Source: Isurus oxyrinchus (Eukaryota). Taken from it: a stretch of 64,000 nucleotides of DNA. The stretch's first letter is position 1. Each line of letters begins with the position of its first letter. The notes beneath the pieces are model-generated. The model searched no databases, was not told the DNA's origin, and saw only the letters and a list, made by a program, of their open reading frames with translations. Where the stretch lies: the NCBI GenBank assembly GCA_026770705.1, contig JANJGN010000034.1:4030001-4094000 (forward strand), written 5' to 3'. Position numbers and translations under genes: made by a program. Shown here in pieces: positions 30,481-54,564 of this stretch.

Positions 30481-30607
30481 CTCTGCTGTTTTAAACTGTG
30501 AAACTCTTGGCTCTCCTCTCACCGTTTTAAACTGTGAAAATCCCACTACCCTGTATCTCTTTCGAAATGTCAATATCCCTTGTCTCCTTTTGCTGATGTA
30601 ATATGAA

Positions 30608-30685
30608 GAGAGAGAAAGACAGAGAGAGATAGAGAGAGAGAGAGAGAAGAAGAGAGAGGGAGAGACACAGAGAGAGAGTGAGAGT
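30608..30685. repeat. (GA)n microsatellite
   Basis: Seen directly. Confidence 0.9.
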
Positions 30686-31039: not shown

Positions 31040-31090
31040 TAAAAAAAAGAAAAACTGCGGATGCTGGAAATCCAAAGGGATTCAGCAGGG
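31040..31090 (-). mobile_element. Short 3'-terminal fragment of the Neptune-type PLE
   Basis: AAAACTGCGGATGCTGGAAATCCAAA is identical to the left-arm tip at ~49526-49551. Confidence 0.75.
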
Positions 31091-31989: not shown

Positions 31990-32700
31990 GAATAATGTTC
32001 CAAATTAGCAAACACGACTGGGTAGTAATGGGGGATCTGGCCATGTTAGTGGCCTTGAATGTAAAGGATAAAATGTTGGATTGTCTCTTGTTGGAAATGG
32101 CCATTGCCTGGGATTCAGTCGCACTAGTGTGACTTGCCACTTATTAGCCACAGCCTGAAAGTTCTTCAATACTTCTTGCATATGAGTAATGACCACTTCA
32201 AAATCTGAGAAGTCAGCAAGTATTGTATGCATTGTTCAATCATAAGGAAACCTCATTAATTCTGCCTTTATAATGCAGGGAAGATAATTGAAGAACAACA
32301 TGAAATGGCTAGGCATCGGATCCTGCTATGAGGAACTGCCGCAGCGATGAGCTGGAACTGATATGATTTACATCTAACAGCGGCAACCATCTTCCTCTAT
32401 GCTATATGAATGCAACCAATAGAGAGACTTCTCCCTGGGTTACATTGACTCCAGTGTTGCTCGGGGTCCTTGTCGCCATTCTAGGCCTTGATGTCAAGGG
32501 TAGTCACTTTCACCTCACTGCTTAATTCCAGTTCAATTGTCATGTTTCAGTCAGGGCTGCAATGAGGTTAGAAAATACGTGGCCCTATCCGACCGTAAAT
32601 TGAACGCTAGTGTTCTGGTTATTACTAAGAAAATGTAATTTGACAGGACTTTCGGCGGCACATTACATCCTGTGAGACTAGGTTGATGGGTGGCAATTGG
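31990..32700 (-). mobile_element. CR1-clade LINE RT fragment (family of 22200-24730)
   Basis: ORF track AVANKWQVTLV and QAMAISNKRQSN, parallel to 23930-24010. Confidence 0.7.
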
Positions 32701-32759
32701 GTTGGTGAGCATTTGCTCGGCTGTTAAGTATGAACATAATAAAATATGAAAGTATAGGA

Positions 32760-34990
32760 GGGCAAAGTTGGCTATGCTGGCTGGGAATGTTTATGAAAAC
32801 GATGGGAGACAGACAATTTTTAGACATTAAAAAAGCATTACATGGCCTCAGTGAAAATGACTGTTCCGCATAGTCACATAAGGCAACGGGAAAGATGGAT
32901 CAAGCATGGCTAAAAAATTACCTTGAATTCCGTTAGATGTAATGAAGAAACCTATAAAACTGCCAGCAAATTTGGTAAGCCCGAGGACTGGGAGTGAAAT
33001 AAATTCCAGTAAACGAGGGCGAAGGAACAGGAAAATGAATGGGAAAAAATAATATGAATCCAAGCCGTCCAGAAACAAAAATGGAAATGGAATAGCTTAT
33101 TTAGGTATGTATAGGAACGATTAGCAAAGACACATGTGGTAACATTGCATTCGGAGACAGAAGAATTAATAATGGAAAGTAGGGAAATAATGGAGAAACT
33201 ATACGATCACTTTTTGACTGTGTTTATAAAGGAAGATACAGCAAACTCCCAGAAATACTGGGGATCCAAGGTAATTGTTAGAACAAGTTGCTAAATGAAA
33301 TTGATGGCAAGGAAGAAGCAATACTCGCAAAAATAATTTGAATGAAGTGCCATGAATCCTTTGGAACTGATGTATTACGTCAGAGAGTATAGATGGTGGT
33401 GGCTGTTGAGATAATGCATGCGTTGGTGATATAGTTCATAAGTCTATTGCTTCTGTATAGGCTGCTCCAGAATGCAAAATAGCAAAAGTATGTACACTGT
33501 TTAGGAAAGGGTGGCGGGGCAGGAAGAGGGATGGGGGCAAGGAAATGGAGAGATGCAGACATGTTAGTTCGACATCACAATCCGGGAAACTGTTAGAATC
33601 TATTCAAACAGGTATGGTAACGAAACATTGTTTGTGGTGGGCTGGGTGGGGGGTCCGTGAAATAAACGTTATTTCGTAATGCCAACATGAATTTATGAAC
33701 GAGGAACCATGTATGACAAACCAGTTGGAGGTTTTTCAGGGCGTTACGTTTAGCAAAGATTTAGGAGTAACAGTGGGTGTGGTGCATTTCGTTTTTCAAA
33801 AGGCTTTTGACAAGTGCTGGCTTAGCAAGTTATAAGACATTATTTGAGCAATTGGAATTCAAATTAATATAGGAGTGTTCAATGATACTTGGTTAACAGG
33901 CGGAGAACAGAGAGAAGAGATTAAATGGAAGGAAGGCTGTTACTGGTGGTATACTGAAAAATAAGTTCAAGCGCTACTGATTTTCTCAAAATTTACAAAT
34001 TATTTGGATGCAGGAACCAAACATAATTATTCCAACCTCTCTGTTGACGCAAACGAACGTGGGACTGTATGTTACAATAAGGTTGCATGGAGACCTTAAA
34101 GGGATTTTCACAGGCAAAGTGAGTCTGCAAGGACATGGCAGTTAGATTATCAGTCAATGGGTTTCATGTCATTGACTTCGCAGAAACAATCAGAATTGCA
34201 GGTTATTTCTTAAATGTTGAAGCACTGAGAAGCGTTGACGTCCAACGGGTCTCCAGCGATCTTGTTCTTGGTTCACAAAAAGCTAGCATGCAGGTGCACT
34301 GAGCAAATTGGAAAGCAAACAGAATGTTGGCGTTCACCACAATCAGATTGGAATGCAGCTTTAATTATTTACATAGCCTGACCGAAGACCAATGAAGTTC
34401 CTTTGCACCCTTCTATGGAGTAGAGTGGTCGATCAGCAGAAGTCTGAAGTCTTGTCGGGATCGCACTTGGGATATTATGCATTGTTTTGTTCGCCATACA
34501 AAAGAAGGATATACTTTCAAGAGACATAGTTCAATGGATGTTAACCTGGCAAATCCCTGGAATGGTGGCAACGTCTTCTAAGGAGGGCAAATTGGCACTG
34601 TCTTACCAGAATTTCGAAGAAAGAGAGGTGATTTCGTTTAAACTTACACAATTCTTACAGGGCGTGAAATAATAGATCTAAATTTGATCTTTCTCCTGGC
34701 TGCTAAATCTAGAGCCGGGGGCTCACTCTCAGAATAAGGAGAATGCCATTGAAGACTTTGATGAATAAAGACTTCATCGCTCAGGTGGTGGTGAATCTTA
34801 GGGATTATCTATGAGGTTTAACTTCAATCATAAAGCATGCTAATGACTTAGATAGATTGTTCTGACACCAACAAATACGGGATATTGTGGGAAAGTGGCG
34901 TTGAGTTAAATTATCAGCCATGATCTAAATTAGTGTCGAAGCAGACGTGATGTTGCAAATGACCAATTTCTGCTCCAATTCTCCTATGTT
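32760..34990 (+). mobile_element. Decayed CR1 ORF2 (linker, RT, 3' end)
   Basis: TTTCAAAAGGCTTTTGACAAG (FQKAFDK), GGACATGGCAG and the typical 3' tail ...GACCAATTTCTGCTCCAATTCTCCTATGTT. Confidence 0.85.
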
Positions 34991-35049
34991 CATATCTTCC
35001 TCGAGCTGCAAATAAGAGTGCGACATTCTTAGCATACACTGAAGGATGA

Positions 35050-36460
35050 AAACAAAATGTCTAATTTATCATTTGATGATTTCAAACAGCAGCCTGTCCG
35101 GTGGTAACTGATCCACCGACGTGGCACAATGGTCTGCCAGAGACACATTTTATCATCCTACAAAGTTGAAGGTTTCATCAAAATCGGTGAGCAGGGGAGC
35201 CACCTTCCAATGGCCTCAGTTGTAGGAAACTTAAGTTGAAGAAGCATAATATGTGCAGACGTTACAGCAACATCCAGTTGAAGAAACTCCGAAGACCATT
35301 TATTAATCTTCCTGGTGAATTAGGGGAATCGCCAGGCTTCAGAAACATGCTCAAATGAGTGTCAGGTGTATTAAGATAGTAAAGTGCTTGAGAAGATAAA
35401 ATGTAGCCAATAGTTGGCGCTCGCATGCTTTGAAGTTAATTTCGGATTTTGATTTGCACGGGTTCATACACAATTTGCAGCAGGTGTTTGCCTATCCGTT
35501 GAAACAATGATATTTTGTAACGAGTTTCAGTAGAGGGCACGTCCAGGTTCAATGGCCGCGAATGGCCTGGAGCCAATCGACTTGGCATGAATAACAGCCA
35601 ATCTTCTCCAAGTTCTGTGCTGCGTGATGTGTTTTGGTGGTCCAATCCTTGACTCTTTAATGAAGTCATTAAGCTGTTTGGCAACAAAGAACAATGCGGG
35701 ATAAAATTCCATTGAGAACTTAGCAATGCTACAAATATTTTCGCCTCTGGCGTTGCTGGCAGAATTGGACGCCTCTGCACGTTGGCTACTGCTTGTTGCA
35801 CACCGCTGAGAATAAGATGTATCACAGGCATTGGATGGAAAATGACATCCTCCTTCGCAGCTCTACCTTTTAAGTGATAAATTTAAGATCATATGCAGTC
35901 AGAGAGATGACAATTTACCTGAGAGGTTAACGGTCCATCAACAAATTCAGTGGCCAATGCAAGGTGATTCACCTACTGATGCAACACACTTCATTTCGGT
36001 GAATCTTTGAATTTTTAAACAGTGCGCTCTTGAAAACTAGTGGCAGATTTGTGAAAGGTTTGTGGCAAACGTGCATGAGTATCCTTGCCATTGAATGGTG
36101 AATGTAAATTGGTCGAGATCTTCCCTAGCTCCTAGAATCCCCCAAACACATTAGATCGATTGTTTTTTGGGGGGACGAACTATATTTTTTTATAGCAGAA
36201 ACGACAGCAGATGTAACAAGAATTGTTACTTCCGTTCGATGGCAACTTGCATAGGGGCAAATTTACTTATGACTCAGATAACTGATACGATGTCTCCACC
36301 AGTGACCTGGCATGCATATCAGCTACATACTGAATGCATCATAACATGTGTCTTCCGTGAAATACCTGCATCCAGTAAGGGATGAACAAATTATATAATA
36401 AAGGGCTTGCTTTCTTTAGGAATGGGAAATTGCGTGACTGTGGGCTCTCTTCAAATGCAA
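35050..36460 (-). mobile_element. Ancient LTR-retroelement/ERV pol relic (RT and connection region)
   Basis: Minus-strand motifs in the expected order: PTVTQFPIPKESKPFI..LLDAGI, DQFTFTI, RLPQTFHKSATSF (cf. RLPQGFxNSP), LHQ*VNHLALAT (decayed LQYVDDLLLA), WNFIP. Confidence 0.75.
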
Positions 36461-36959
36461 TAGGGAGGTTACTGATGCTCACGTAGTCCATTTAACATGA
36501 TATTTCTAATCGTTGAATAATGAGGGCATGCGCTGCCCAAATTCGTAAAATTCCCATTGTTACCTCAGCGGTAGCAAGGTATATTTTCCACTTCTACTCA
36601 TTACAACTTCAAGACATTGTCCTACTAATCGGTAGCTTTAAGGTTTGGAATCAGCAGTCGTTATTCTTTCTGGAGTTATTGTGGCACCTTAATTAACATG
36701 AAATGATTAGGAAATATATGCTAAATAAGACATTATGAATTAGGCATGGCGGATGAAGCATTGCGACTGCATAATATGTGTATTCGTGAACAACAGTTTG
36801 ATCCATGGCAAACCCACGTGCAGTAATTGCGATAGAATTCAGGAGCTTAGTCTCAGACTCATTGAATTGGAGGCATAGATGTAGACACTGGAATGCATCG
36901 GGGTGAGGGTGGGGCGGGCGCGGGCTGGGGGTTTCTAGTTATCTGGATGCTTTGTTCCA

Positions 36960-37750
36960 GGAAGCATACTGTCATCGGCACAAGTCAGCATGCTTTCACG
37001 AAAGAGGAATCCTGTTTAAGGAATATATTGACGTTTCTGAAAATGTAACGAAATTGCTAGATAAGGAGGATCCTTCCGCCATTTCCTTTTCACGTGTGTG
37101 TCCCATTGTTAGGTCTAATTTGCTGCATTCCAAAATAGATTTATTTCTTCAACGTTTGGTGGCCGCTCTGGACATGAGTCCACATTCTCTCCAAAGGGAA
37201 CTCATATTTATTGACCCCATTGTATGTTCTGACTCAATTATGCTGCTTGTAGTTCTGCGTGAGAGAGAACACATTTTAGCAGCAGTCAGTGTGCGTTACC
37301 AGTGATATTTCATTCACTACAATGGTTGAAATGGGTGAAGAGCTGCTATATTATTCTCTTCTAGGTTCTATTTCTTGAGAACGAGGGGAGGCTCTACTAG
37401 CTAAGGGGTTTCCGGATGGAAGCCTATACCGTTGGGCTCTGGACAATATTAATAATCATTATGAGGGCGAGCAGAGACAACAGATATTGTGCGCTATCAT
37501 AGGAGTAAAGCCTTTGGGAGCACCATTCATCTTTCAGTGATTGTGGAGCTAGAAGTAATGCAATCACTTCCGGCGAGCCTGGGAAAATCTTTCCCACTTC
37601 AGTGCCGGGGTCCTGAGACCATTAAGGAATGGCTACGGCCTCCAGACTCGTGTCGATGCGACTCAATTAATCCTGAATGCATTTAGGTAGTAATTGACAC
37701 TGTATTTGGTGCGTTTCGTGGAACGGGCTCTAAAATGATTCACGAGGTTA
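36960..37750 (-). mobile_element. Probable gag relic upstream of the pol relic, homologous to the tandem-array unit
   Basis: AGTCCACATTCTCTCCAAAGG (~37177) matches AGTCCACATTCCCTCCAAGG (~39292) with collinear flanks, and it lies 5' of pol on the same strand. The gag identity is inferred. Confidence 0.35.
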
Positions 37751-40497
37751 CCTTCAGCTTCTCTTAAATGTTGTTACAAAATGATTTGCTCTAAAACAAA
37801 TGCCTGGATATGGGTCGTCATTTTGTCTTCAGCCTACCTCGCGTTACCAATCTTTTTACTGTCAGAACCTTTTGGCAGCTCAAAGCAGCTGACTGCCTTA
37901 TAAAAAGGAGGGATAATGCGATATTTAAATATGATCAGGCAGGATGGACCGGGGAGTGTCGAGCGGACAGTCAACGTGGGAGTGCGGGTAGCCGTGTCAA
38001 CGATTTTTGGTGGGCATCAGTCAGTTTGTCATGATGCTAATCGAGTGCGGTGGATAGATCAGTGGCCAGGAAGCTTTTGTTCTATTCGGGTGGTGTTTGG
38101 CGACTGTGGTTGAGTTTCGGATAATTTCTGCGGTGGAAATGGAGAGTGGGCTGTATAGCCAGATGGACATAGCCTTGGGGTTCCGAGGTTCACCCGTGCT
38201 GTGGAATAGCAGCCAGTGTAAAGCTGGGGATGTTTGGGGGCGGGGGTAGTCAGCAGTGAGTACGTGTGCTTGATATTGTTGCGTTAACGGGATGATACAG
38301 AGGATATTTAAGGGAATTTCAGAACGAGGGAGGTGGAGGGTGGCGGTGGAAGTTGGAGTTACGTGGTTGTGGGAATTATTCGAGGCGTTCTTGGTTAGTA
38401 GTCACAGGTGTGGCGTTTCCCTGGGTGTGAAGAGATTCGACGCCTGGGACCGGAGATCTGGGTATTCGGTAGGGTGGGTGAAAGATTTCGGTTGGAGAGG
38501 TTTCGCAGTTAGTCATAGGGTGGAGGCTACGTTTGGGGTGGGAATAGTCAGAGCCGGAGAGAGCAGTCGGATGGTTAGAAGTGGAGTCGTTTTATGCAAT
38601 TGTGTGTCAGGCTGCACCATAGAACTGTAGTCATCTGCTGCTAGAAATGATTATTCTTCTCAATTTTCTTGGGTCGCGATCGCCTACACGTGTGGTTTGT
38701 ATTTAATCTTTGTAAACAAAAGTACGTCTTCCACTACAAAACAAATTCCTTGCAAAAAGTGCGTGATCTTTGCACCTCTGAGTGGAACAAGGGGACGACT
38801 GGGCATTAATAGTGCCTACGTTCGCACTAATTGGCTTCCTCTTTCGTCTACCTGATGACTATAAGCCTTTTGAACGTATATTCCATGCTGTGAGAAAGCT
38901 CATGTTACTTTGGGCAACTGATTCTCCCATTTCCCATTTAACAATACTGGGCACGATGATGAAAAGCAAACCCTGGATTTACAGTCTTCCAAACTTTCTC
39001 TGGGTTTATCCCTGCCCTGGTTTGATTAGTAACTGTACTGTAATGATATCCGAAGCAAGTAGGGTTGACTTGTCAGGTTTTTGTTTCTGATTAGACATGC
39101 TTCTGCAAATGTCCACTTTCCATAATCCAAGTTCATGTGTCATAAAGCCTCGGAATACTAATGTAGAGTCTTTTGTAAAATAGTATCTTACTCGGAGAAG
39201 GTGGTGCTAAAGTTAAACTGACCCTCTGCTATCAAAATGCCTTTTATTTTTCATCAAAGCATTCCCACACCTCAATATCGCTCTCAATATTAGTCCACAT
39301 TCCCTCCAAGGTTAAAGGGCCTTAGTTCACGAATGCTTTTTTTTACTGAACTATTCAAGTTGTGGTTTCCTCCATTTGATAATGGAGCAGATTTTGCCTT
39401 CTGCCACCGATATAGCATTTTATACTATGTTCATAAGGGTGCTCAGTTGCTGAGCATCTTTTTTCCTTGAATGGTTCATTATCCTGAAGATGAGAGCCGA
39501 TTGTGTTGACTACAGGATTTAGGGCTTGCAGCCCAGAATGGTCGGGTTAGTCCATTGGTTACAGCCATTACCAGGGCGAACTGGGAAAGCAGGTGCACTG
39601 ACCTCTTGCCATAGGAACCTCTGCTGGGGCATTGTTCAGCGCGTTATTGACTCCCGTGCTGGTTCTAATGCAGTCATATATGTGAGGCAGGTGAACTAAT
39701 TCCCTCATTGCTGGCATCATGATTCATTTGATGGTCATTCAGGATAACTCTGAGCGCCCTCCACGACTCAAGTTATGCTTAAGCAATTTATTTTGAATGG
39801 AACTACAGTTTATGAGTGGTATCTCTGAATGGACTCTTTCGTTGCCTTGAGTGCAAATTGGAGTTGTTGTTAAGTGTGGTTTCGAATTATGATGTTCTGC
39901 CTCAAAATCTTTGATATTGTGTCTCAAATTGAATTGAGCATTTGTCGCACTGCCATTACTTCCAGATTGTGAAGGTAGTTCATGGTGGCTGAATATGTAA
40001 GAATGCGGCTCGCTTTAATATTAGTGTAGTAAATGATACTTAGAAGGGATTTGCAAAAACGACGGTAAAGAACCAAATTCGTTCATCTTAGACAAGTATG
40101 ATACTCTATTTAGAAGGTGGTTAATACGATATCCCAAAACGGGAAACTGATTAATATAAATTCTATTATTACTAGATTCTCACACCCTTGCAATGGGGAG
40201 AGAGGGCGAGATAATGAGAGAGAGGGAGAGTGAGAGCGACAGATTGGAAGATAGAGACCGATAAAAAAGAGCGGAGCCATGATGAATGAAACTTCGAAGA
40301 ATATTAGCATAAATGTTGGCAATTAGACTGAACTAGCGTCCCAACTTGATTGTTTTCAAATGTTGTTTTTCACCTTCTTGACAACGAAGCGTCATGGGTA
40401 ATCCTTTGCTATTAGTCATGTCGCAAATTTACACTCAATGTTACTTACAGACACAATGATAAATGCTTCACAAGAATAATTTATTTTCCATTTTCAG

Positions 40498-40518
40498 ATT
40501 TAAAGAAGAAGGAAGAAG
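40498..40518 (+). CDS. 21-nt heptad micro-exon, (D)LKKKEE
   Basis: CCATTTTCAG|ATTTAAAGAAGAAGGAAGAAG|GTAAATGCAG; phase 1/1; conserved across three copies. Confidence 0.65.
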
Positions 40519-42689
40519 GTAAATGCAGAAATGAAGAAATCAAATCTGGAATTTAAATATGATTATTGACAAGATTGTATTTTGATGGCCACGGTATTAG
40601 GAACTGCTTCCGCTTAGGGTCACTGATTATGAAAAATGTGATGTGAATGTAATCTTTGTAAACATACGTACATCGTCCCCAACCATGAGAACCTGTTACA
40701 AAAGTTAGTGATCTTAGTGTCTCAGAGAGGAACATGGGGGAGACTCAACATTCATAATGCCTATTGGCGTACTCCCTGGCTTCCAATGTTGCCTAGCTAA
40801 TGGAAATAAGTCATTTGAACGTATATTCCATGCTCTGACAAATCTCAGGTATCCTGAAGGAAGTTATTTTGGGCTACTGATTTTCCCATTTCCCGTTAAA
40901 CCTTACTAGGCAAGCTCATGAGGAACTAAGTCTAAATTGCCAGTGTTCCCTTCCTTCATCTGGGCAAGTACATATGACATAACGCTTCGACTGCATAAGT
41001 ATCTTTTTGTTTTAATTGAAATAGCAGCTTACACTGATAACGACTTTAAATTTACATTCACGTGCTGCTATCAAAATGCATTTCTTTTTTCAGCAATTCT
41101 ATTTCACGCTTCATGATTATCCTCAAAAATAGTTCACATTATATACAAGGACACAGGACTTTCAATGAACTATTCTTTTTTTAACTATTCATGCTTGTGA
41201 TTTCTTTATGCCCAAATGTAGCAGAATTTACCTCCTGCCGCCAGTATTGCATTTTCTATTATGACTAAACGGGTAGTCAGCTGCAGCAGAGAATCTGTCC
41301 TTTGATTGCACTTTTTCCTCAGACTGAAAAGCGCTTTTAATTGGAAACGTGATTTTATTTTTGCAGTCTAACAACAGAGCATCGTGGGGCTAAGGCCATT
41401 GGTTACAGCCATTACCAGGGCGTAATGGGAAAGCTGTTGCAGTGACATATTCCGTCTGTGACTCCAGCTGTGTCATTTTTCAGCAAATTATTGACTGCAG
41501 TCTTGGATGTATTGGAGTCCTATATGTGAGACAGGTGAAATAATTCCCTGAGTGGAGAGATCTTGATTTCTTTGAAGAGCATTCACGACAACTCCGAACA
41601 ACCTCCACGTCTCCAGTAATCTTGAAGCAATTTAAATTGTCTAGACCTACAGATTATGGATGTGGTCGCTGAATGGACGCTTTTTTTTTACCTTGAGGAA
41701 GAATTGGATGTGTCGTGACTGTTGCTTTAAAATATCTTGACTTGTCGCAAGAACTTTGACATTGTAACACACGTTTTCTCGAGCATTTGTCACGATACTG
41801 AACTACATTACTACCCTGTGAAGAAGATTCATGGCGGCTAATTGCATATTTTCTGTTTGTAACCTTCGAACTTTTGTGGATAAGTGCAGAATTTGTTAAA
41901 GTTTACATTCAATCATATCATTTCCGTATTTACTTATCGGTTACGTGATGGTTTATTTGTATTTATAAAATAGTAAGAGGCAATTTAAGTTCTTTCGAAA
42001 TAAACTGGTCTTTTTCTTCAAAGATGACATCCTCATCCTGTGCATAGTCTCTAAACTCAGTGGACCCTCATCAATTTCCATTCAGCGCGATACTGGGAGC
42101 TTCCCAAATGTCCTGAATCAAAATTCTCAACGTAGAGTTGGAAACGGGCAAGCATTCATCCTGGAGAAATTGATGTTTTCCGTGTCACACTGCCTTTCCT
42201 GTTTCTCCAGTTCAGTCGATAACCAGTTCCTTCTTCACCCTTCTGAGATGTAGTTTTTCTCCCTCTAACTCAACATTACTTTCCACTAACCAGTTGCTAC
42301 TTTAAAACATAAACATATCCTCACGGTTTGTTGGGCTTGCTGTAGTTCTCACATCATTGGTTTTGTCTCTCTGAATCTAGCAGCTGTTGAAGAAAGGTTA
42401 CAAATTTGGTTCCATTAATTTTCACAACTGTTTCTTCCCCTGTGAAACAATCGTTTTAGCTTTTATATAACGGGATCACAAGTTATATAACAATGTGTCC
42501 TGCATCAAAAGTGAGGCCGTACAAGTTACAATCAATGGACAGAGTCAATTGGGGGCAATGATGCAGAAGTTTTTTTTTTGCACAAGAATGCTGCTCTATT
42601 TAGAATATGTTTGAAATGATATACCACAAGGGGGAACTTAATGAATATAAATTGCTATCATTTCTAGGATCACAAACTCTAACAATGAA

Positions 42690-42745
42690 CAGAGAGCTAG
42701 AGAGGGAGAGAGAGAGAGAGGGAGAGAGAGAGAGAGAGAGAGAGG
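42690..42745. repeat. (GA)n microsatellite (part of the array unit)
   Basis: Seen directly. Confidence 0.9.
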
Positions 42746-42971
42746 AGGCATGATGGGTGAATCCTGTGGAGACATTAGCATAAATACTCGCCTTTACATT
42801 GAAATTGCGTCCCTACGTGATTATTAGTAAACATCGTTTACCAACTTCTCAATAAGGAAGTGTCAGGGATGTTGCATTCCTATCAGTCAAGTCTTCATTT
42901 TTGACTCATAGTTACTTGCAGGCAGAAGCTAAATGTTTCGCAAGCACCATTTTATTTCTTACCATTTTCAG

Positions 42972-42992
42972 AATTAAAGGTGAAGGAAGAAG
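42972..42992 (+). CDS. 21-nt heptad micro-exon, (E)LKVKEE
   Basis: CCATTTTCAG|AATTAAAGGTGAAGGAAGAAG|GTAAATGCAG. Confidence 0.65.
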
Positions 42993-45310
42993 GTAAATGC
43001 AGAATTTAAGAAACCAAATCCAGGAATTAAGTCTGAATATAGACAAGGTTGTCTTTTTATGGGGATGGTAGTTAGAACTGTTTCTGCTGAGGATCGTTAA
43101 CTGCTGAATGTCTGGTGTGCATGTAACCTTGGAAACATAAATGCGTCTTCCACAACCATGATGAACTCTTGTGTTTTATTTTTGTTGTGTTCTATGTTTC
43201 TCTAAGAGGAAGAAGAAGAAGACTGGGCTTTCATAGTGCTTACAGTCGTACTACCTGGCTTCCACATTCACCTAGCTAATAGCTATAAGACATTCAAATG
43301 CATATTCTATGCTCTGAGAAATGTCATGTTTCTTGAAGGATGATATTTTGGGCTACTGATTCTTCAATTTGCCGTTTATCATTACTGGGCAAGTTTATGA
43401 AGAACTAAATCTAAGTTGAACGCATTCCATTCCTTCCACAGGGTTTATATGTGCCCTGGTTAGCAGTATTGCAAATCTGCCGGAAGAAAGAAGGGCTGCC
43501 TCGTCAGAAATTTGTTTCACCTTATCTTCTTCGGTTGAAACGTCCACGTTCCTTCTCCCAAGTGACTTTGAAATATTGCTTACTAGTGCATCCATATCGT
43601 TTTTTATAGATTTAAAATAGTAGCGTCCTCTGATAAGGTGGCCTTACTTTAGATAGATTTGTTGCTATCAAGTTGCATTATTTTTTTTCCACAAAGGTTT
43701 CTCAAATTTCATGGTCATACTTAAAATTGAGCCACAGTCTCCCCAAGGTGAAAATACCTTCATTCATTAATTCTTTTTTTTTAACTTAAGTACCCATACT
43801 TGTGGGTTCTACTTGCAATAATGGAACAAGTTTTACTTCTAGACGCCGATATCACGTTTTCAACTCTATTCACATGGATGGTCAGTTGCAGAAGGTCTTT
43901 CTTCAATCTATGGTTCCGTTCCCTGTGGCTGAGCAGCGGTTTTGTTCACTACCGGATTTTGGGTTTGCGGTTGAATCGAAGATTTTCGGGTTAAGGACAA
44001 TGGTTACGGTCTATAGCAGGGTAAACTAGGAAAGCAGGTGCAGAGAGCTTTTGGAGTACTATCCCTTGCTGTGGCACCGCTCAGCGAGTTATTGACTACA
44101 GTTCTCGTTGTTATGCACTCAAATAAGTTCAAAAGGTGAAATAGTGTCCTTATTGCGGAGATCGTGATCCTTTTGTCGGTCATTTACAGCAACTCCGAAC
44201 AGCATCCACACCGCAAGTTATCCTTCAGTTATTTAATTCCTGTACAACCACTGCTTTTGGGTGGTTTTGCAGAATGGAGCGTTCAGATTCTGGGCTTGCA
44301 AATTGGACGTGTCGTGGCTATTGAGGTTGTGATTCATTTCTTGAGTATTTATCATGCTTCCGGGCTTCATAACTGCCAGATTGTGAACGTGATTCATGGC
44401 GGCAGAAGGCGAGTATTCTGTTCAAAGCTCTATTACTTGCGTGGTTAAAGGTCGAATTTATTCAAGTTTATGTCCAACCCTTTCCTTTCTATGCTTAGCA
44501 ATTATTTCAGAGCATTTTTAAATCGTTTTATAAAATAGCCAGGGGCAATTTCTGTTCTGTCAAAATAACGTGTTCTCTTTGATGTCTTCTTCGTACTACG
44601 CGCAGTTTCTAAACGCAATCAACCCTCAGCAGTTTCCACTCAACGCGAACCTGAAAGCTCCACAAAATGTACTTAATCAAAACTCTCGATAGGGAGCCGG
44701 AAATGGACAACAAATTATTCCACAAAAATCGATGCCATCCACATCATAGTTGCTTTCCAGTCTTTACTGGAAATTCGATAACCAATTCCTTCTCTGTCTT
44801 TCATGTGAAGATATTTTATCCCGCCAACTCCACGTTTTTTGCCTGAACGAATTCCAATTTGAAATGTAAACATATTGTCACGGTTTCTTTGTGCTTGATG
44901 TCACTCTCACATTACGGAGATGGGGGTTCACCTCCCTGAATCTAGCGTTCAATGAGATTGCATACAAACATTAATTTTCTCTCTGCAATATTTGCTTTAG
45001 CACTTATATAACGAGACCCCAAGTTGGGCGGTGATTATGTAAGAATATGGTGCACATTCAATTTTAGAACCTACAAGGCATGCTCAAAGGGTTTGGTCAA
45101 TCAAAATGAAAGTCGCATCTATTAGTCAAGAATACTGTAAAATTTAGAGTGTGTTTAATATGATTTCCGTATTTGGAAACATACTGATCTAAAATGCTAT
45201 AATTAGTAGACTAAAAACTCTTATATTGGAGGAAGAGAGATAAAGAAAAAGAGAGAGAGAGAGAGCAAAGCCATGATGGGTAATCCTTTTGGGAATATTT
45301 TCATAAATGT

Positions 45311-45370
45311 TGACCTTCACATCGAACCTACGTCCCTTTTTGACCTTCACATCGAACCTACGTCCCTTTT
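45311..45370. repeat. Perfect 30-bp tandem duplication
   Basis: TGACCTTCACATCGAACCTACGTCCCTTTT occurs twice in tandem. Confidence 0.95.
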
Positions 45371-45520
45371 TGATTGTTAATAAACTTAGCTTTCCAACGT
45401 CTCGACAAAATAATGTTATCTGTGTCGTTTTCTCTCAGTCATGTTTAGATTTTCTCTGAATGTTACTTGCAGACAGAATGTTTAATGCTTCACAGGAACG
45501 ATTTCTTTTTCCATTTTCAG

Positions 45521-45541
45521 AATTAAAGAAGAAGGAAGAAG
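45521..45541 (+). CDS. 21-nt heptad micro-exon, (E)LKKKEE, with a GC donor
   Basis: CCATTTTCAG|AATTAAAGAAGAAGGAAGAAG|GCAAATGCAG. Confidence 0.55.
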
Positions 45542-45779
45542 GCAAATGCAGAATTGTAGAAAACAATCATTGAACTGAAATCTGGTTCTTGACAAAATTG
45601 TGTTTTGGTGGCGATGAAGGTGGGAACTTTTTCCGCCAAAGTTTTGCAACCATCTGTGCGCAACGGCAAATATTAGGATAAGTTGGAACAATTTCTACGC
45701 AGGCAAGAGCAAAAAAAAAGAAAACCCTGTGTTTGAATACTTGTCACGTTTCTTTTTGTTGAAACAGGGCTTTGGCTCA

Positions 45780-48000
45780 GGCCAAGGGATGCCTAAAACC
45801 CATGAAAACCTAAGGGGCGTGAATTCAAACATACAAAGTTTCAAATGGACAGACGGCAGGAATATGGTATTCATAGAAAAAAGCCAGACAAACAAAATAG
45901 ATATAATTAGAGGAACAGGGGCCAGATGGCACTTAGGAAGATTCGAATGCTACAAAGCATCGAGGAGTGCCACTGTTAATTAATTTTGGCACTACAACTT
46001 TAGGAAGGGATGATCTAAATTCAGGAACCCAAGATTTATAAGAGGTTTTGGTTTAGGTGAGAAAGAAAAATGACAGGAATCACTTGTGGTAATGACATAC
46101 CGCCCCCTCATTGTAACAACATCGTAGAACAGATGTTCAGACAAGTAATAAAGATAGATTCCCGATGGTGCAACAGTGATTATGGCAGATTTTCATCTAC
46201 ACATAGATTGGGAGAAACATGATGCACAAAGATAGCATTGATGCGAATTTCATTGAATGTTTGCCAGATAGTTACATGTAACAGCACCTTGTGGAGCCGA
46301 CCAGAGAACAGGATATACGAGGCCTGGCATTGAACATAGAATTTCATTAAATGTTAAATTACTAGGAAGGTACCCTTTGGTAACTGTTTACCTAGAGTGG
46401 ATGAATTTTACACTCATTTCGAGGTCGAAACAGAAGGTATTTTCAACCTAATAAGGACAACCGTAATGGCATGAAAGCAGTGCTCCCTAACCTGAACTGG
46501 CAAATGAAGTTAAAGGACATATCAGTGGAAGGCTCAGTAGCAGATCTTTGAAGGGGCATTTCTGAATACGCAGAATAGTTATGGAGAAAAAAAAAAAGTT
46601 CCAGAGAAAGTACCCACTATCCGTGGTTCAAGCATAATGTTAAATATGGTATCAAACGTAAAGGAAACACATTAGCTAAGTGGAATTTCTAGTGGAAGCT
46701 AAGGCGTTTGTAGTTAATTAAACTTGAACTTTGCTTCGAAATCACTATACAGTATACTATTAACCTCCTGGAAACAGCAGTAAAGCAGGAACAGCAAGGA
46801 AGGAAGGAACGAGGAATAATTATAATTAATCGGAAAGTGCTTTTGGGAAAATCAGTGTAGTTCCTTGCTAACAAACCTAAGGTCCACATGGCCTTCACCA
46901 TAATTTCTTGACATAAGTGACAATGAGATAGTTGATGTACTGGTTTAAATTTTTTCAAATTTCACTCGAATCGAGTAAAGTTACATTACAATGGAAAATA
47001 TCAAATGTAACCCATTTATTCATTAAGGGTGGGAGTCAGTAATTAGCAGCATATAAGCAAGTTAAGCTTAACATCTGTCCTAGTAGAAAATTATAGGTGA
47101 TATTATTAAATATGTTATAACCTGTCACGTAAAAAAAATGAAGACAGTTTGGCAGAGTAAACAGGTTTTTTGCGAAAGGGATATCACGTTTAACCACTTT
47201 TTGGTGTTTTTTGAAGGAGTCAATACTGCTTTGGAAAAGGGAAAAGGGTGGATGGCAATCTACTTTGTTTCTCAGACGTCATTTTTTAAGTGCTTCATGA
47301 AATTTTATTGCAGAAAATCTAATAAAAAAGCTCATTTTGCACTGGCTAATTTTTGCCACGATAGAAGACCGGGTAGCTAATAGGAATCAGAGAGTTTCTA
47401 TAAGTTGGTCAATTTAGAGGTTTGCAGGGTGGAACGTCTTCTGTCACCGGGATCAGGAATGGGCACTCAACAGTTTACAATTGATATACCCGGCTTGATT
47501 GAAGGGATGAACGAATGGATGCCTTATATACTGAAGGCTGAAAGAAAGGTAGGAATGCAAGTTGTGAGGAGGACGTATTGTATGTAAGAAGAGCGATACA
47601 TAAGGTTAGTGAGATGGCAAATATTTTGCAGATTGAGCATAATTTGAGAAACTGTGAACTTGTTCATTTTTCGAGTAAGAATAAAATTAAGGCGTGTTGC
47701 CTGAATGGTAAGAGATTTCACAGCACTGAGATTCAGATGTATCTGTGTCTACTAGTGCATGAATTATAAAAAAAAAGTTGTCAGCAAGCAGGAACGGCAG
47801 GTAATTCGGATTGCTAATATAATGTTATAATTTATTGTGAGGAGGATTGATTGAAAGATCACAGATGCTATGCTTCAATTTTACATGGCTTTGGTGAAGT
47901 CGCATTAGGGGTATGGTATGGATTACTGTTGTCCGTACTAAAACAAATATATCAATGAATTAGAAACTGTTCAGATAAGGTTTAGAACTGTGTTTTTATC
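45780..48000 (+). mobile_element. Decayed CR1 ORF2 (endonuclease to RT)
   Basis: Endonuclease remnants (TACCGCCCCC, GATTATGGCAGATTTT, GTGGAGCCGACCAGAGAACAG) and RT remnants (NLRNCELVHF). Confidence 0.8.
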
Positions 48001-48319
48001 GGAAGTCAAAGGCAATTGGTTTTGTCTTCCTAAGGGTATATCATTTCGTTGTAGAGGACATGTGTATTGTGGAAAAAAGGAAATGTCTAATCACTGACCT
48101 GGACATTCAGAAAAATACTAACCCTTGAGGAAATCGATAACTTATAGTGTATGTGAAGAGAATCGTGATTTTTTGGCAACTGTTATTGCAAGGAAAATGC
48201 ACCACTGATGGTGACTGACAGTTAGCTGCCAAGCATGGCTTGAAAGTTAAGCCAGCCAGCGTGATCCAGATGGTTCCAAGTCTTGCCCCGAGGAATGAAG
48301 CAGTGAATGATAATCACAG

Positions 48320-49280
48320 AATTACAGAATAACAGTGCATAAGAGGCCGTTCGGCCCATCGAGTCTACACTGACACGTGATAAACACCTGACCTACCTAT
48401 CTAATCCCACTTACCAGCACTTGACCTGTAGTATTGAATGTTATGACGTGACGAGTGCTCATTCAAGTACTTTTTCATATGGTGCGACACAACCCACTGC
48501 CAGCACCCTCCCTTGTAGTGCATTCCAGACAGTCACCACACTCTGGGTACAAAGGTTTTTCCTCACATTCTCCCTAAACGTCCTGCCCTTACCCTTATAT
48601 TTAGTCCCCCAGGTGACTGACCCTTCAACTAAGGAAAATAGGTGATCCCTATCGAACCTGTCCATGTCCCTCATAAACTTGTACACCTCGATTAGATCAC
48701 ACCTCTGTCTTCTCTGCTCCCACTGAAAGCTCAAGTCTATCGAACATTTCATCATAACTTAATTGTTTCAGCCCAGGCAACATCCTGATGAATCTCCTCT
48801 ACACCCCGTTCAATGCAACCCATCTTTCTTGTAATGTGGCGACCAGAACTGCATGTGGTACGCCTGCTGTGGCCTCACCAAGGTTCTATACAATTGCAAC
48901 ATTCCCCCCCTACTTTAATAATCTATGCCTCAATTGATAAAGTCACCTGTCCTATTGTCCTTTTGTACCACACCATTAACATGCCTCTCCACCTTAATGA
49001 GATGTATGGACACTCAGGTCAAGATCGTTTTCTTCCTCAGAACTTCCTATTGCCATACCGTTAACTGAATACTTCCTGGTAAAATTACTCCTTCCAAAGT
49101 GTATCACCTCACACTTTTTAGGGTTAAATTCCATCTACCACGTAACTGCCCCTTTGGCTCATTCAGTCTATATCTTCCCCTAGCCCAAGAAACCCAAGCT
49201 CACTGTTAACCACCCGGCCAGTCTTTGTGTCATCCAGAAACTTACTATCCATATTCCACACATAGCCATTTAAGTTGTTT
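48320..49280 (-). mobile_element. CR1 3' fragment
   Basis: ORF 48459-48755 EQRRQRCDLIEVYKFMRDMDR...TQSVVTVWNAL is a classic CR1 ORF2 C-terminus. Confidence 0.9.
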
Positions 49281-49500
49281 ATATATATCAAGCTTAATGC
49301 GGAGCAATGAAAGTACGTGACCGTCCTTTCTGCAAATCCATGGAAATAGGCCTCATTGCAAAACTAAATGACAAGCTCAAATTTAGAACCTGTATAAAGT
49401 TTAGCTCATTGCGTATTAATAAGGAAATGTTATGGAATTGCGGAATAATGTCTGATGTTGGACAATAGTTTTGCAGCTTTTGAACAATGACCTGGTGAGG

Positions 49501-49515
49501 TGCCATCTGTATCAT
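49501..49515 (+). repeat. Left 15-bp target-site duplication TGCCATCTGTATCAT
   Basis: Identical copy at 52865-52879, immediately flanking the palindrome. Confidence 0.95.
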
Positions 49516-49612
49516 AAAAACAAAGAAAACTGCGGATGCTGGAAATCCAAAACAAAAACAGAATTACCTGGAAAAACTCAGCAGGTCTGGCAGCATTGAG
49601 GGAGAAGAAAAG

Positions 49613-49651
49613 AGTTGACATTTCGAGTCCTCATGACCCTTCGACAGAACT
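49613..49651 (-). ncRNA. Minimal type-I hammerhead-like motif (left arm, CpG-decayed)
   Basis: Minus strand reads AGTT-CTGTCGA-A-GGGTC-atgag-GACTC-GAAATGTC-AACT. Confidence 0.45.
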
Positions 49652-50041
49652 TGATTTCGAGTCCAAGAAAGAGTTGAAATATAAGCTGGTTTAAGGTGTG
49701 TGTGTGGGGGGGCGGAGAGAGAGAGAGAGACAGAGGTGCTTGTGTAGACAAACAAGCAGTGATAGAAGCAGATCATCAAAAGATGTCAGTGACAATGGTA
49801 CAAAAGAACACATAGGTGTTAAAATTAAAGTTGGTGATATTATCTAAACGAATGTGCTAATTAAGAATGGATGGTAGGGCACTCAAGGTACAGCTCTAGT
49901 GGGGGTGGGGGGAGCATAAAAGATTTTAAAATATTTAAAAATAATGGAAATAGGTGGGAAAAGAAAAATCTATAAAATTTATAGGGAAAAAAAGGGGAAA
50001 AAAGGGGGAAACAGAAAGGGGGTGGGGATGGGGGAGGGAGC

Positions 50042-51178
50042 TCACGACCTAAAGTTATTGAATTCAATATTCAGACCGGAAGGCTGTAAGGTGCCTAGTC
50101 GGAAGATGAGGTGTTGTTCCTCCAGTTTGCGTTGGGCTTCACTGGAATAATGCAGTAAGCCAAGGACAGACATGTGGGCAAGAGAGCACGGTGGAGTGTT
50201 AAAATGGCAAGCGACAGGGAGGTTTGGGTCATTCTTGCGGACAGACCGCAGGTGTTCTGCAAAGCGGTCGCCCAGTTTACGTTTGGTCTCTCCAATGTAG
50301 AGGAGACCACATTGGGAGCAACGAATGCAGTAGACTAAGTTGGGGGAAATGCAAGTGAAATGCTGCTTCACTTGAAAGGAGTGTTTGGGCCCTTGGACGG
50401 TGAGGAGAGAGGAAGTGAAGGGGCAGGTGTTACATCTTTTGCGTGGGCATGGGGTGGTGCCATAGGAGGGGGTTGAGGACTAGGGGGTGATGGAGGAGTG
50501 GACCAGGGTGTCCCGGAGGGAGCGATCCCTACGGAATGCCGATAAGGGGGGTGAAGGGAAGATGTGTTTGGTGGTGGCATCATGCTGGAGTTGGCGGAAA
50601 TGGCGAAGGATGATCCTTTGAATGCGGAGGCTGGTGGGGTGATAAGTGAGGACAAGGGGGACCCTATCATGTTTCTGGGAGGGAGGAGAAGGCGTGAGGG
50701 CGGATGCGCGGGAGATGGGCCGGACACGGTTGAGGGCCCTGTCAACGACCATCGGTGGAAAACCTCGGTTAAGGAAGAAGGAGGACATGTCAGAGGAACC
50801 GTTTTTGAAGGTAGCATCATCGGAACAGATGCGACGAAGGCGAAGGAACTGGGAGAATGGGATGGAGTCCTTACAGGAAGCGGGGTGTGAGGAGCTGTAG
50901 TCGAGGTAGCTGTGGGAGTCGGTGGGTTTGTAATGGATATTGGTGGACAGTCTATCACCAGAGATTGAGACAGAGAGGTCAAGGAAGGGAAGGGAAGTGT
51001 CAGAGATGGACCACGTGAAAATGATGGAGGGGTGGAGATTGGAAGCAAAATTAATAAATTTTTCCAAGTCCAAACGAGAGCATGAAGCGGCACCGAAGTA
51101 ATCATCGATGTACCGGAGAAAAAGTTGTGGAAGGGGGCCGGGGTAGGACTGCAACAAGGAATGTTCCACATATCCCAT
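50042..51178 (-). pseudogene. PLE RT C-terminal half, Cys linker and GIY-YIG endonuclease, one in-frame TAG (50480-50482)
   Basis: FLRYIDDYF, LPFLDL, CPRKRCNTC, NLVYCIRCSQCGLLYIGET...EH...GLN; the two ORF-track pieces are in the same frame. Confidence 0.92.
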
Positions 51179-51209
51179 AAAGAGATATGACAGCTATGCC
51201 TGTCTCTTT

Positions 51210-52346
51210 ATGGGATATGTGGAACATTCCTTGTTGCAGTCCTACCCCGGCCCCCTTCCACAACTTTTTCTCCGGTACATCGATGATTACTTCGGTGCCG
51301 CTTCATGCTCTCGTCGGGACTTGGAAAAATTTATTAATTTTGCTTCCAATCTCCACCCCTCCATCATTTTCACGTGGTCCATCTCTGACACTTCCCTTCC
51401 CTTCCTTGACCTCTCTGTCTCAATCTCTGGTGATAGACTGTCCACCAATATCCATTACAAACCCACCGACTCCCACAGCTACCTCGACTACAGCTCCTCA
51501 CACCCCGCTTCCTGTAAGGACTCCATCCCATTCTCCCAGTTCCTTCACCTTCGTCGCATCTGTTCCGATGATGCTACCTTCAAAAACGGTTCCTCTGACA
51601 TGTCCTCCTTCTTCCTTAACCGAGGTTTTCCACCGATGGTCGTTGACAGGGCCCTCAACCGTGTCCGGCCCATCTCCCGCGCATCCGCCCTCACGCCTTC
51701 TCCTCCCTCCCAGAAACATGATAGGGTCCCCCTTGTCCTCACTTATCACCCCACCAGCCTCCGCATTCAAAGGATCATCCTCCGCCATTTCCGCCAACTC
51801 CAGCATGATGCCACCACCAAACACATCTTCCCTTCACCCACCTTATCGGCAATCCGTAGGGATCGCTCCCTCCGGGACACCCTGGTCCACTCCTCCATCA
51901 CCCCCTAGTCCTCAACCCCCTCCTATGGCACCACCCCATGCCCACGCAAAAGATGTAACACCTGCCCCTTCACTTCCTCTCTCCTCACCGTCCAAGGGCC
52001 CAAACACTCCTTTCAAGTGAAGCAGCATTTCACTTGCATTTCCCCCAACTTAGTCTACTGCATTCGTTGCTCCCAATGTGGTCTCCTCTACATTGGAGAG
52101 ACCAAACGTAAACTGGGCGACCGCTTTGCAGAACACCTGCGGTCTGTCCGCAAGAATGACCCAAACCTCCCTGTCGCTTGCCATTTTAACACTCCACCGT
52201 GCTCTCTTGCCCACATGTCTGTCCTTGGCTTACTGCATTGTTCCAGTGAAGCCCAACGCAAACTGGAGGAACAACACCTCATCTTCCGACTAGGCACCTT
52301 ACAGCCTTCCGGTCTGAATATTGAATTCAATAACTTTAGGTCGTGA
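51210..52346 (+). pseudogene. PLE RT C-terminal half, Cys linker and GIY-YIG endonuclease, one in-frame TAG (51906-51908)
   Basis: Same motifs as the left arm; 52017-51210 = 807 nt, so both ORFs share a frame. Confidence 0.92.
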
Positions 52347-52767
52347 GCTCCCTCCCCCATCCCCACCCCCTTTCTGTTTCCCCCTTTTTTCCCCCTTTTT
52401 TTCCCTATAAATTTTATAGATTTTTCTTTTCCCACCTATTTCCATTATTTTTAAATATTTTAAAATCTTTTATGCTCCCCCCACCCCCACTAGAGCTGTA
52501 CCTTGAGTGCCCTACCATCCATTCTTAATTAGCACATTCGTTTAGATAATATCACCAACTTTAATTTTAACACCTATGTGTTCTTTTGTACCATTGTCAC
52601 TGACATCTTTTGATGATCTGCTTCTATCACTGCTTGTTTGTCTACACAAGCACCTCTGTCTCTCTCTCTCTCTCCGCCCCCGCCCCCCCCCCCCCCCCCC
52701 CCCGCCCCCCCACACACACACACCTTAAACCAGCTTATATTTCAACTCTTTCTTGGACTCGAAATCA

Positions 52768-52806
52768 AGTTCTGTCGAAGGGTCATGAGGACCCGAAACG
52801 TCAACT
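52768..52806 (+). ncRNA. Minimal type-I hammerhead-like motif (right arm)
   Basis: Stem I AGTT/AACT, core CTGTCGA(A), stem II GGGTC/GACCC, then GAAACGTC with palindromic ACGT in place of helix III. Confidence 0.55.
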
Positions 52807-52864
52807 CTTTTCTTCTCTGCCGATGCTGCCAGACCTGCTGAGTTTTTCCAGGTAATTCTGTTTT

Positions 52865-52879
52865 TGCCATCTGTATCAT
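52865..52879 (+). repeat. Right 15-bp target-site duplication
   Basis: TGCCATCTGTATCAT, identical to 49501-49515. Confidence 0.95.
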
Positions 52880-52919
52880 GTCTGACATGAAAAGCACCTG
52901 TGAAATGTTGTTTACTAAA

Positions 52920-54560
52920 CAGAAAAAAAATAAACTCAGAGACCAGGAGCAGGATTCGGCCTTCGAGCCTTCTCTGCCATTCATATGATCCTGACTGATC
53001 CTCCAACTTAATAGCTTGTTCCCACTTTCTCCCCATACCGTTGGTTCCTTTCATCCCAAAAATATGTGGAACTACTCCTTGAAAGACTACAATATTTTGG
53101 TTTCAACGAATTTCTGTGGTACCGAATTCCTGATGCTCAGCACATTCTGTGTGAAGACATTTCTCTTCTTCTCTGAACTAAATGGCCAAATCCATATCTG
53201 CAGACTGTGGCACCTGCTTCTGGTCTTCCCCACCATCAGGACCTTCCTTCCTGCAATCAAACTGTCTGATCCTGTTAGAGGTTTCTACGTTTCTATGAGA
53301 CGCCCCCTCATTCTTCTGAACTATCTTGAATATAATACTAATCGACTGAATTTCTCCTGATACCTAAGTCCCGCCATCTCAGGAATCAATCGAGTAAACT
53401 TTCGCTGCACTCCCACGATAGCAAGTACATCCTTTCTCAGATAAGGAGACAAAATATGCAGGAAATATTACAGCTGTTGTCTCATCAAGCCCCTGTACAA
53501 TTGCAGAAAGACAATGCTATTCCTGTACTCGAATTATTTGTCTATGAAGGCCAACATATAATTGCCATCTTTACCGTCTCCTGAACCAGCATGCTTACGT
53601 TCAGCGATGGGTGTGCAAGGACACCCATATCTCTTTGCACATTTCCCTCTCTCAATTTATAGCCAATAAGATAATAAACTATCTTGCTGTTTTAGCTATC
53701 AAATGCATAACCTCACAGTTATCCACATTTTACTGCATCTCCCATGCATTTGCCCGCTCACTCAGTTTGTCCCGATCACACTGATGCATTTCTGCATCCT
53801 CCTCACTGCTCACCCTCCCACCTAGCCTTTTGTCATCTGCAAATGTGGAAATATTACATTTAATTCCCTTATCTAAATCATTAGTATATATTGTGAATAA
53901 CTGCCGTCTGGCACTGATCCATGCAGTAACCCATCAAAAACTGCCTGCCATTCGGATAAATATCTATTTATTCTCGCTCTTTCTTTGCAGTCTGCCGACC
54001 AGTTTTCTATGCATCTCAGTACAGTACCCCTAACCCAATGCTCTTTAGTGTTACACGCCAATCTCTTAATTGGGCCTTGGTCGAATGCCTTCTGAATGTC
54101 GATGTAAACCACATCCACTGGAACCCCCTCATCGACTCTAGCAATTACATCCTCAAAAATGTCCAGTGGATCAGTCATGCATGACTTTCCTGTCATACAT
54201 CGATGCTGACTCTGTCTGATTCTGCTGCTGTTTTCCACGTGCTCAGCTATTAATTATTTTACAATGGACTCCAGAATTTTTTCCCCACTACCGATACCAG
54301 GCCGTCTGGTCTATAATTCCCTTTTATATCTCTTCTTCCTTTTTTCTTAATCGGGGTTACATTTACTATCCTCCAATCATTAGGAGCTGTTCCAAAGTCT
54401 ATAGAATCACGGAAGATGCATCCCCTTTTTTCTACAGCCACTTCCTTAATTAGCCAGGGATGTAGATTATGAGCTCCTGGGGATTTATCGTCTTTCAAGC
54501 CCATCAATTTGACCAACACCAATTCCAAAGTAATAGTAATATCGTTCATTTCCTCCCCCT
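52920..54560 (-). mobile_element. CR1 ORF2 RT region to 3' end
   Basis: KSPGAHNLHPWLIKEVA, NDWRIVNVTPIKKKG, GNYRP, VDVVYIDIQKAFD in the ORF track. Confidence 0.92.
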
Positions 54561-54564
54561 CACG

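Follow-up and report, generated by a model that had tools for sequence, protein, structure and literature searches.

What do three nearly unchanged segments of 21 nucleotides (nt) encode, when the tandem array around them has otherwise diverged strongly? They lie in a 64,000-nt stretch of the 5-Gb genome of the shark Isurus oxyrinchus (contig JANJGN010000034.1, here C34, positions 4,030,001–4,094,000), and the whole of this stretch is referred to as the window. Contig positions are obtained by adding 4,030,000 to window positions; the numbering is extended past both ends, and negative positions lie 5′ of the window. A preliminary description took the segments for exons with which a host gene extends a coiled coil through exon duplication. 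Phase-1 heptad exons that have been tandemly amplified are very likely real here, yet the 21-nt exons make up only a local zone of a far longer series. We consider it probable that splicing joins the three segments, as coding exons, into the message of a single giant shark gene, whose product would be a soluble coiled-coil rod of ~2,500 amino acids (aa) with a B30.2 head.

Three conserved 21-nt segments in a diverged array

The segments and the units that carry them are the following.

40498..40518, + strand: K-type heptad micro-exon 1, DLKKKEE, 21 nt, phase 1, AG/GT ends (GT donor)
42972..42992, + strand: K-type heptad micro-exon 2, ELKVKEE, 21 nt, phase 1, AG/GT ends (GT donor)
45521..45541, + strand: K-type heptad micro-exon 3, ELKKKEE, 21 nt, phase 1, AG/GC ends (GC donor)
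40092..45636, + strand: tandem units of ~2.5 kb (K-only triplication), each with a (GA)n tract, ~250 nt, the exon and an intron
38691..39990, + strand: truncated fourth array unit, 3′ intronic part only, without exon, matching units 1 and 2 at 67–69% in a self-BLAST

Positions, splice ends and the phase-1 peptides agree exactly with what had been described. Each segment is preceded by a pyrimidine tract and CAG, and the next bases are GTAAAT, GTAAAT and GCAAAT, respectively; the third exon may be weak because its GC donor has A at +5. The strong divergence claimed for the array is borne out, as whole units are just 65% and 64% identical in pairwise comparison. The sliding-identity check that had been proposed places a 43-nt core, 93% identical in both pairwise comparisons, as the top 43-nt window in each, while the best window outside the core reaches 86% and 84%. 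Compared three ways, 39 of the 43 core columns are invariant versus 256 of 473 in the gap-free flank (binomial P = 2.5e-7). Over 264 kb, 21-nt segments bounded by AG and GT or GC number 20 on the + strand and 3 on the − strand, other lengths on the + strand giving 1–11; the 21-nt count on the + strand exceeds chance. Genome searches with two patterns for such 21-nt exons returned five matches each, all at this locus. A perfect tandem duplication of 30 nt is also present at 45310–45373, ~150 nt 5′ of the third exon.

A run of micro-exons ending in a B30.2 exon

The series extends well beyond the window. Phase-1 segments of 27 and 36 nt occur outside the 21-nt zone on the same strand, from −19,734 to 784,251, and two fall in the window itself (PWM, position weight matrix).

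1..64000, + strand: gene model spanning the whole window, from ~C34:3,998,400 to the end of the B30.2 exon at C34:4,817,027
2407..2433, + strand: 27-nt phase-1 micro-exon candidate ERTLNETSP, PWM score 21.4, AG/GT ends
14211..14246, + strand: 36-nt phase-1 micro-exon EIKNYLKASADA, acceptor 7.8, donor 3.0, PWM 21.3

The exon at 14211 is the final one detected ahead of the 21-nt zone, and the candidate at 2407 is less certain because another 27-nt exon precedes it. The gene model spans 818 kb, with a median intron of 1.9 kb and introns of up to 26 kb. Its intact phase-1 micro-exons number 239 (114 of 27 nt, 89 of 36 nt and 36 of 21 nt) and code for 2,346 aa; 65 decayed copies lie among them. Past the 21-nt zone, from ~C34:4,194,800, the exons are mostly alternating ones of 36 and 27 nt.

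The excess of these lengths is seen without any peptide filter. Over the gene span the sense-strand counts are 23 for 21 nt, 32 for 27 nt and 60 for 36 nt, with 0–10 at other lengths; the corresponding antisense counts are 9, 3 and 4. Matrices trained solely on a divergent neighbouring paralog gave, at a threshold of 14, 90 sense and 0 antisense matches for the 36-nt class, and 93 and 3 for the 27-nt class. A phase-1 stop occurs in 7 of 246 copies with AG/GT(GC) ends, versus 165 and 104 in the other two frames, a statistic that is partly circular because the seeds were open-frame.

The run ends in an intact, open B30.2/SPRY exon at C34:4,816,507–4,817,027 on the + strand. Pfam detects SPRY in it (E 2.8e-14) and does not detect PRY. 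The best PDB match is the B30.2 domain of BTN3A1, over query residues 3–160, and matches in the ESM Atlas are just generic SPRY, BTN and TRIM clusters. AlphaFold on the single B30.2 sequence gave a pLDDT of 36, and the model was not used. Contigs from four small RNA runs covered essentially nothing but a repeat in the 10 kb around this exon, a result that speaks neither for nor against expression. A coiled-coil-like, Q/E-rich frame at L034:3960–4320, in an intron of the gene, was considered as a terminal exon and rejected, since stops interrupt it.

At the 5′ end, the candidate opening exons are these.

C34:4,005,537–4,005,647 (from −24,463), + strand: opening 111-nt exon with a Kozak-type ATG, with one paralog copy 42 kb past the B30.2 exon
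~C34:3,998.4–3,998.6 kb, + strand: putative non-coding first exon, a region of ~210 nt with a donor (−31,373) at its 3′ end

The opening exons are conserved in the next gene downstream (paralog B). The ~210-nt region is ~60% conserved in three paralogs, with no ATG or frame shared between them, and is read as a putative non-coding first exon. What the sequence shows directly is the segments with their splice ends, frame, strand and order, and the terminal B30.2 exon of the run. Judged from the DNA, the ~240 micro-exon segments and the B30.2 exon likely form one little-annotated shark gene.

Exon lengths and the heptad register

Hydrophobic residues are found at positions 2, 5, 9 and 12 of the 36-nt exons, at position 4 of the 27-nt exons and at positions 2 and 5 of the 21-nt exons; in the 36-nt exons, position 5 is most often Cys (34 of 89). 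It follows that steps from 36 to 27, 27 to 36, 27 to 21, 21 to 21 and 21 to 36 nt keep a Leu at every seventh residue. Of the 238 steps that join intact exons, 195 keep this rule. Past 380,000 there are 151 intact exons of 27 or 36 nt, and 129 of the 150 steps between them alternate in length; the mean after shuffling is 75, and none of 10,000 shuffles reached the observed count. The hydrophobic periodicity of the conceptual product is strongest at 3.5, and 17 of 22 windows along it peak near 3.5 or 7.

The 21-nt copies fall into two types, T (ELTKCQE-like) and K (ELKKKEE-like). T peptides align best with residues 1–7 of the 36-nt exons (mean BLOSUM 6.1, runner-up 1.4), and K peptides with the last seven residues of the 27-nt exons (mean 5.2, runner-up 1.8). 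A T and K pair thus corresponds to a 36- and 27-nt pair minus one heptad.

The 21-nt zone

Scanned with a matrix over 464 kb, the zone is confined to ~125 kb of the + strand, from 40498 to ~164,800 (C34 ~4,194,800); no match scoring above 8 lies on the minus strand in that scan. Of its 63 copies, 36 are intact and 27 have decayed; by type, 32 are T and 31 are K. Three T copies lie in the window.

57983..58003, + strand: decayed T-type 21-nt copy ELTKYQE, dead donor (TG)
58602..58622, + strand: T-type 21-nt micro-exon ELTKCQK, weak donor
63640..63660, + strand: T-type 21-nt micro-exon ELTKCKE

T and K copies are often paired, 160–520 nt apart, and a GA tract lies upstream of 15 of 31 K copies versus 2 of 32 T copies. 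The three K exons at 40498, 42972 and 45521 were triplicated without a T partner: a hidden Markov model of K upstream flanks matches all three units, and the T model matches none. No intact copy of the 36 carries a stop, while 2 of the 27 decayed ones do. L, I, V or M occupies position 2 in 34 of 36 intact versus 20 of 27 decayed copies (P = 0.03). Decay has affected 27 of 63 copies of 21 nt versus 38 of 241 copies of 27 and 36 nt, a comparison between classes that differ in detection; the excess fits the prediction made below from register neutrality, but young copies are detected more easily. T–K pairs are also found in another paralog (E), where their flanks are recognised by the T models with E values down to 5.5e-7, and the 21-nt zone therefore predates that duplication.

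A family of micro-exon B30.2 genes

Five related B30.2 exons lie on C34, at 2.709 (−), 3.474 (−), 4.817 (+), 6.396 (+) and 7.496 (+) Mb, the one at 4.817 Mb being that of the present gene. The other four are 44–45% identical to it, and two more distant ones lie near 89.72 and 91.35 Mb on contig C21, which is rich in butyrophilin and TRIM genes. They were found by protein query, as a search for PRY missed them, PRY being divergent. DNA sampled upstream of all seven exons contains the same kind of micro-exons, the two genes on C21 included. In a midpoint-rooted tree of 30 B30.2 rows, nine family sequences, among them two catshark proteins, form a clade with 100/100 support on a long branch; BTN and TRIM rows do not resolve among themselves, and the family clade stands apart from both.

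From the start of the gene to paralog B, the clade is represented by a single B30.2 exon, and the opening exons recur once only, directly after the gene's own B30.2 exon, where paralog B begins. Paralog B covers ~1.55 Mb; eight 10-kb samples of it yielded 21 intact micro-exons in sense and 0 in antisense, which extrapolates to ~400 exons if it is one gene.

The catshark protein XP_038668997.1 (Scyliorhinus canicula, 358 aa, automatic annotation) is 72% identical to the B30.2 of the neighbouring paralog and matches four late micro-exons of that paralog, in order, ahead of its B30.2. Part of its N-terminus looks retroelement-derived, as expected if annotation misses micro-exons. GCB73088.1 (S. 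torazame, 190 aa) belongs to the same B30.2 clade and is 61% identical to one of the paralogs here. Both share the B30.2 clade and are annotated without a long coil. No published description of a micro-exon B30.2 family was found among mostly non-subscription papers taken without supplements, and the gene tables of shark genomes could list members.

Relation to butyrophilins, BG and other micro-exon genes

The preliminary description had linked the segments to the cytoplasmic tails of butyrophilins and chicken BG, and had proposed that immunoglobulin (Ig) V, Ig-C, transmembrane (TM) or B30.2 exons be looked for on the + strand of the flanks. The B30.2 exon is there, and shark butyrophilins carry the same 27-nt phase-1 tail exons; Ig-V, Ig-C and a convincing TM exon were not found upstream, and we therefore do not take the coil for the tail of a BG or a butyrophilin. 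Ig families of Pfam are absent from the 134 open reading frames (ORFs) of at least 88 aa on the + strand between −100 kb and +164 kb, and neither Ig nor RING/B-box families occur in the 93 ORFs of at least 62 aa that fill the interval before paralog B. Overall, ORF sets of 134, 144 and 150 gave no Ig, RING or B-box match, the Pfam scan of the gene heads covering 150 of 263 ORFs (93 of 93 for paralog B, 57 of 65 for paralog C and 0 of 105 for paralog D); a RING/B-box motif or Pfam match was likewise absent upstream on the coding strand. BTN-type C2 matches lie mostly on C21, with none near this locus. A scan for TM exons recovered 4 of 4 shark BTN controls as strong sites, and in five gene heads it found no convincing TM exon, the 1–4 weak candidates in each not being common between heads.

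Identity as a type II C-type lectin receptor was also rejected, as the terminal exon is B30.2 and no row from C34 appears in the 150 scored of 616 candidates. Elsewhere, contig C43 and small contigs hold a very large cluster of multi-exon genes with C-type lectin domains (~100 exon matches among those 150 rows).

The likeness to butyrophilins lies in small phase-1 coil exons followed by a terminal B30.2 exon. Butyrophilins consist of IgV, IgC, TM, a few heptads and B30.2 (PMC4046983, PMC12841164); here, in contrast, IgV, IgC and TM were not found, and the B30.2 falls in a separate clade. A shark BTN at C21:107,595,001–107,621,000 (IgC, TM, B30.2) has eleven 27-nt tail exons that score under the matrix of this gene, and tail lengthening has thus occurred in a true BTN as well. 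Shortly 5′ of B30.2, 4 of 5 shark BTNs and 4 of 5 C34 genes have a 27-nt exon whose second residue is Trp; a 36-nt coil exon was found in 0 of the 5 shark BTNs sampled. Birds offer a parallel expansion of the tail: in the longest of the corvid butyrophilin-like proteins (647–900 aa), TM and B30.2 are separated by a repeated coil of ~42 aa.

Chicken BG genes build their coil from many 21-nt exons, 13–36 per gene (PMC4046983), their splice variation shortens the tails (PMC5938342), and they combine signal, Ig-V and TM exons and end without B30.2 (PMC8813856). Many 21-nt heptad exons with a split first codon and a varying number of exons are common to both (63 copies here, 36 intact). The present gene differs in having B30.2 and ~240 micro-exons over 818 kb, of which only 36 of 239 intact ones are of 21 nt, and the signal, Ig-V and TM exons of BG were not found in it. 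By analogy, the nearest functional precedent is the soluble BG tail, a zipper protein regulating actin–myosin (PMC4046983).

TRIM-B30.2 proteins (A33/NF7/TRIM39-like) likewise join a cytosolic coiled coil to B30.2, and a catshark relative is annotated as TRIM39-like. Unlike them, the present gene has no RING/B-box that could be found, its coil is more than 10 times longer and is encoded by micro-exons, and its B30.2 does not group with the sampled TRIM rows. Schistosome MEGs share the micro-exon build, with mainly symmetric exons of at most 36 bp that can be skipped in frame (PMC8293314); they are, however, host-exposed parasite proteins for which no homology is expected, and exon lengths in the shark gene are tied to the heptad register, favouring ordered inclusion.

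Other features of the window

A 31-nt segment at 5026–5056, spotted by eye, has a CAG acceptor and a strong GTAAG donor. Its inclusion would shift the frame, and it is possibly a poison exon or a product of chance. At 50042–52346 a set of retroelement ORFs is present twice, nearly identical and in inverted orientation, with a GIY-YIG match in one frame; we take this to be probably a young Penelope-like element. Older duplicated intronic blocks, 70–72% identical, pair 55734–55862 with 61444–61572 and 56500–56660 with 62160–62321, and no conserved open frame was found in these blocks. Ig-like motifs at 55734 and 61444 were rejected as exons, having stops and no Pfam match.

A proposed architecture and its alternatives

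In the gene that we favour, the non-coding first exon (~C34:3,998.4–3,998.6 kb) would splice to the 111-nt ATG exon. The 36- and 27-nt exons that alternate after it would supply 12 + 9 residues, or three heptads, in which one core position is Leu and the other Cys, Leu or Lys. The 21-nt T and K exons may derive from a 36 + 27 pair minus exactly one heptad, each adding a single heptad, and one such exon could be gained, lost or skipped without a shift in register. Owing to this neutrality, the zone would duplicate and decay fastest; the array in the window would be one K exon triplicated along with its 2.5-kb intron. A coiled coil rises 0.15 nm per residue. Two parallel chains could accordingly pair into a cytosolic rod of up to ~350 nm with two B30.2 heads, dimerisation, localisation and length all being predictions. 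Such a rod may act as a long cytosolic spacer or tether that presents B30.2 to a putative ligand, much as the tail of a butyrophilin would if released from the membrane portion.

Several observations weigh against this architecture. The junctions are predicted from sequence, the 5′ end of the gene model is predicted from conservation, and the ligand and localisation of the rod are putative. The register rule is broken in 43 of 238 steps (34 from 27 to 27, 8 from 36 to 36, and one from 36 to 21, between 14211 and 40498), so exons must have been missed, wrongly included or used alternatively, and the figure for the protein's length is a rough one. The T and K exons have intron flanks unlike those of the 27- and 36-nt exons, which leaves peptide similarity as the only basis for their derivation. 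Relative to the type consensus, the ratio of nonsynonymous to synonymous differences (pN/pS) in decayed 21-nt copies, 0.58, is little above the 0.41 of intact ones. Cys at core positions is also compatible with an extracellular, disulphide-linked coil; weak TM-like candidates are present (3 of 120 in the head of this gene); and no full-length homologue was returned in a search of proteins of up to 2,000 aa.

The same exons might instead belong to a membrane-bound or secreted protein, a signal or TM exon having been missed, and the product would then be a BG/butyrophilin-like receptor with an extremely long tail or an extracellular, disulphide-linked stalk. The frequent Cys of the 36-nt exons would suit such a protein, as would the 27-nt exons and the Trp exon before B30.2 that family members have in common with true butyrophilins. 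The 111-nt exon, moreover, starts with a hydrophobic, codon-conserved stretch 5′ of its ATG (VILALEVAK, versus VMLAIEVAR in paralog B). In paralog B, however, the ATG is at codon 2 of that stretch, which explains its conservation without an upstream coding exon, and the upstream exon common to the paralogs has no conserved ATG or frame. With Ig and RING/B-box families missing from the 134 ORFs near the gene and the 93 before paralog B, and with a TM scan that is strong in all BTN controls yet gives weak, unshared candidates in the five heads, we regard a membrane or secreted form as unlikely. A different objection grants the gene and questions the zone: the 21-nt exons, including the three in the window, could be mostly skipped or dying, their cores being recent or converted duplicates. 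The higher share of decayed copies, the mediocre donors in the window (+5 A, one GC) and the 36-to-21 entry step, which violates the register rule, all lean that way. It is nevertheless improbable, since the identity peak is limited to the exon and its splice sites with flanks 64–79% identical, the intact copies are free of stops, and the T–K pairs with homologous flanks in paralog E make the zone old.

Finally, the run could be made up of separate units: a short B30.2 gene and, upstream of it, several genes or pseudogenes that are shorter and consist of coil alone. The short database models of the relatives (358 aa in S. canicula, 190 aa in S. torazame) and introns as long as 26 kb would be in keeping with this. 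Against it, the clade has a single B30.2 exon in the interval from the start to paralog B, the opening exons recur once, right after that B30.2 exon, and all exons have the same strand and phase, while the partly retroelement-like N-terminus of the catshark model is what an annotation missing micro-exons would produce. A division into several genes therefore has very little to recommend it, and the single giant gene remains the reading we adopt.

Implications

Whether the finding extends to a family is evenly balanced in our judgement: sharks may have a family, so far undescribed, of seven or more megabase-scale genes made almost wholly of register-locked exons of 21, 27 and 36 nt, encoding soluble rods of at least 2,500 aa with B30.2 heads, in which paralog B, with ~400 exons, would exceed titin (363 exons, PMC9142044) and the 21-nt zone would serve as a register-neutral tuner of length. 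If spliced as predicted, the gene studied here would be among the most exon-rich of vertebrates and is largely missed by annotation, which represents the relatives as fragments of 190–358 aa. The heptad-exon mechanism of butyrophilins and BG would here have been taken ten times further, apparently without the Ig and membrane parts, which bears on the origin of BG-type tails and of orphan B30.2 proteins. Such a gene would provide a natural test of the ordered splicing of hundreds of exons of 21–36 nt, and of whether protein register limits the exon duplications that survive, a single 21-nt exon being neutral and a single 27- or 36-nt exon not.

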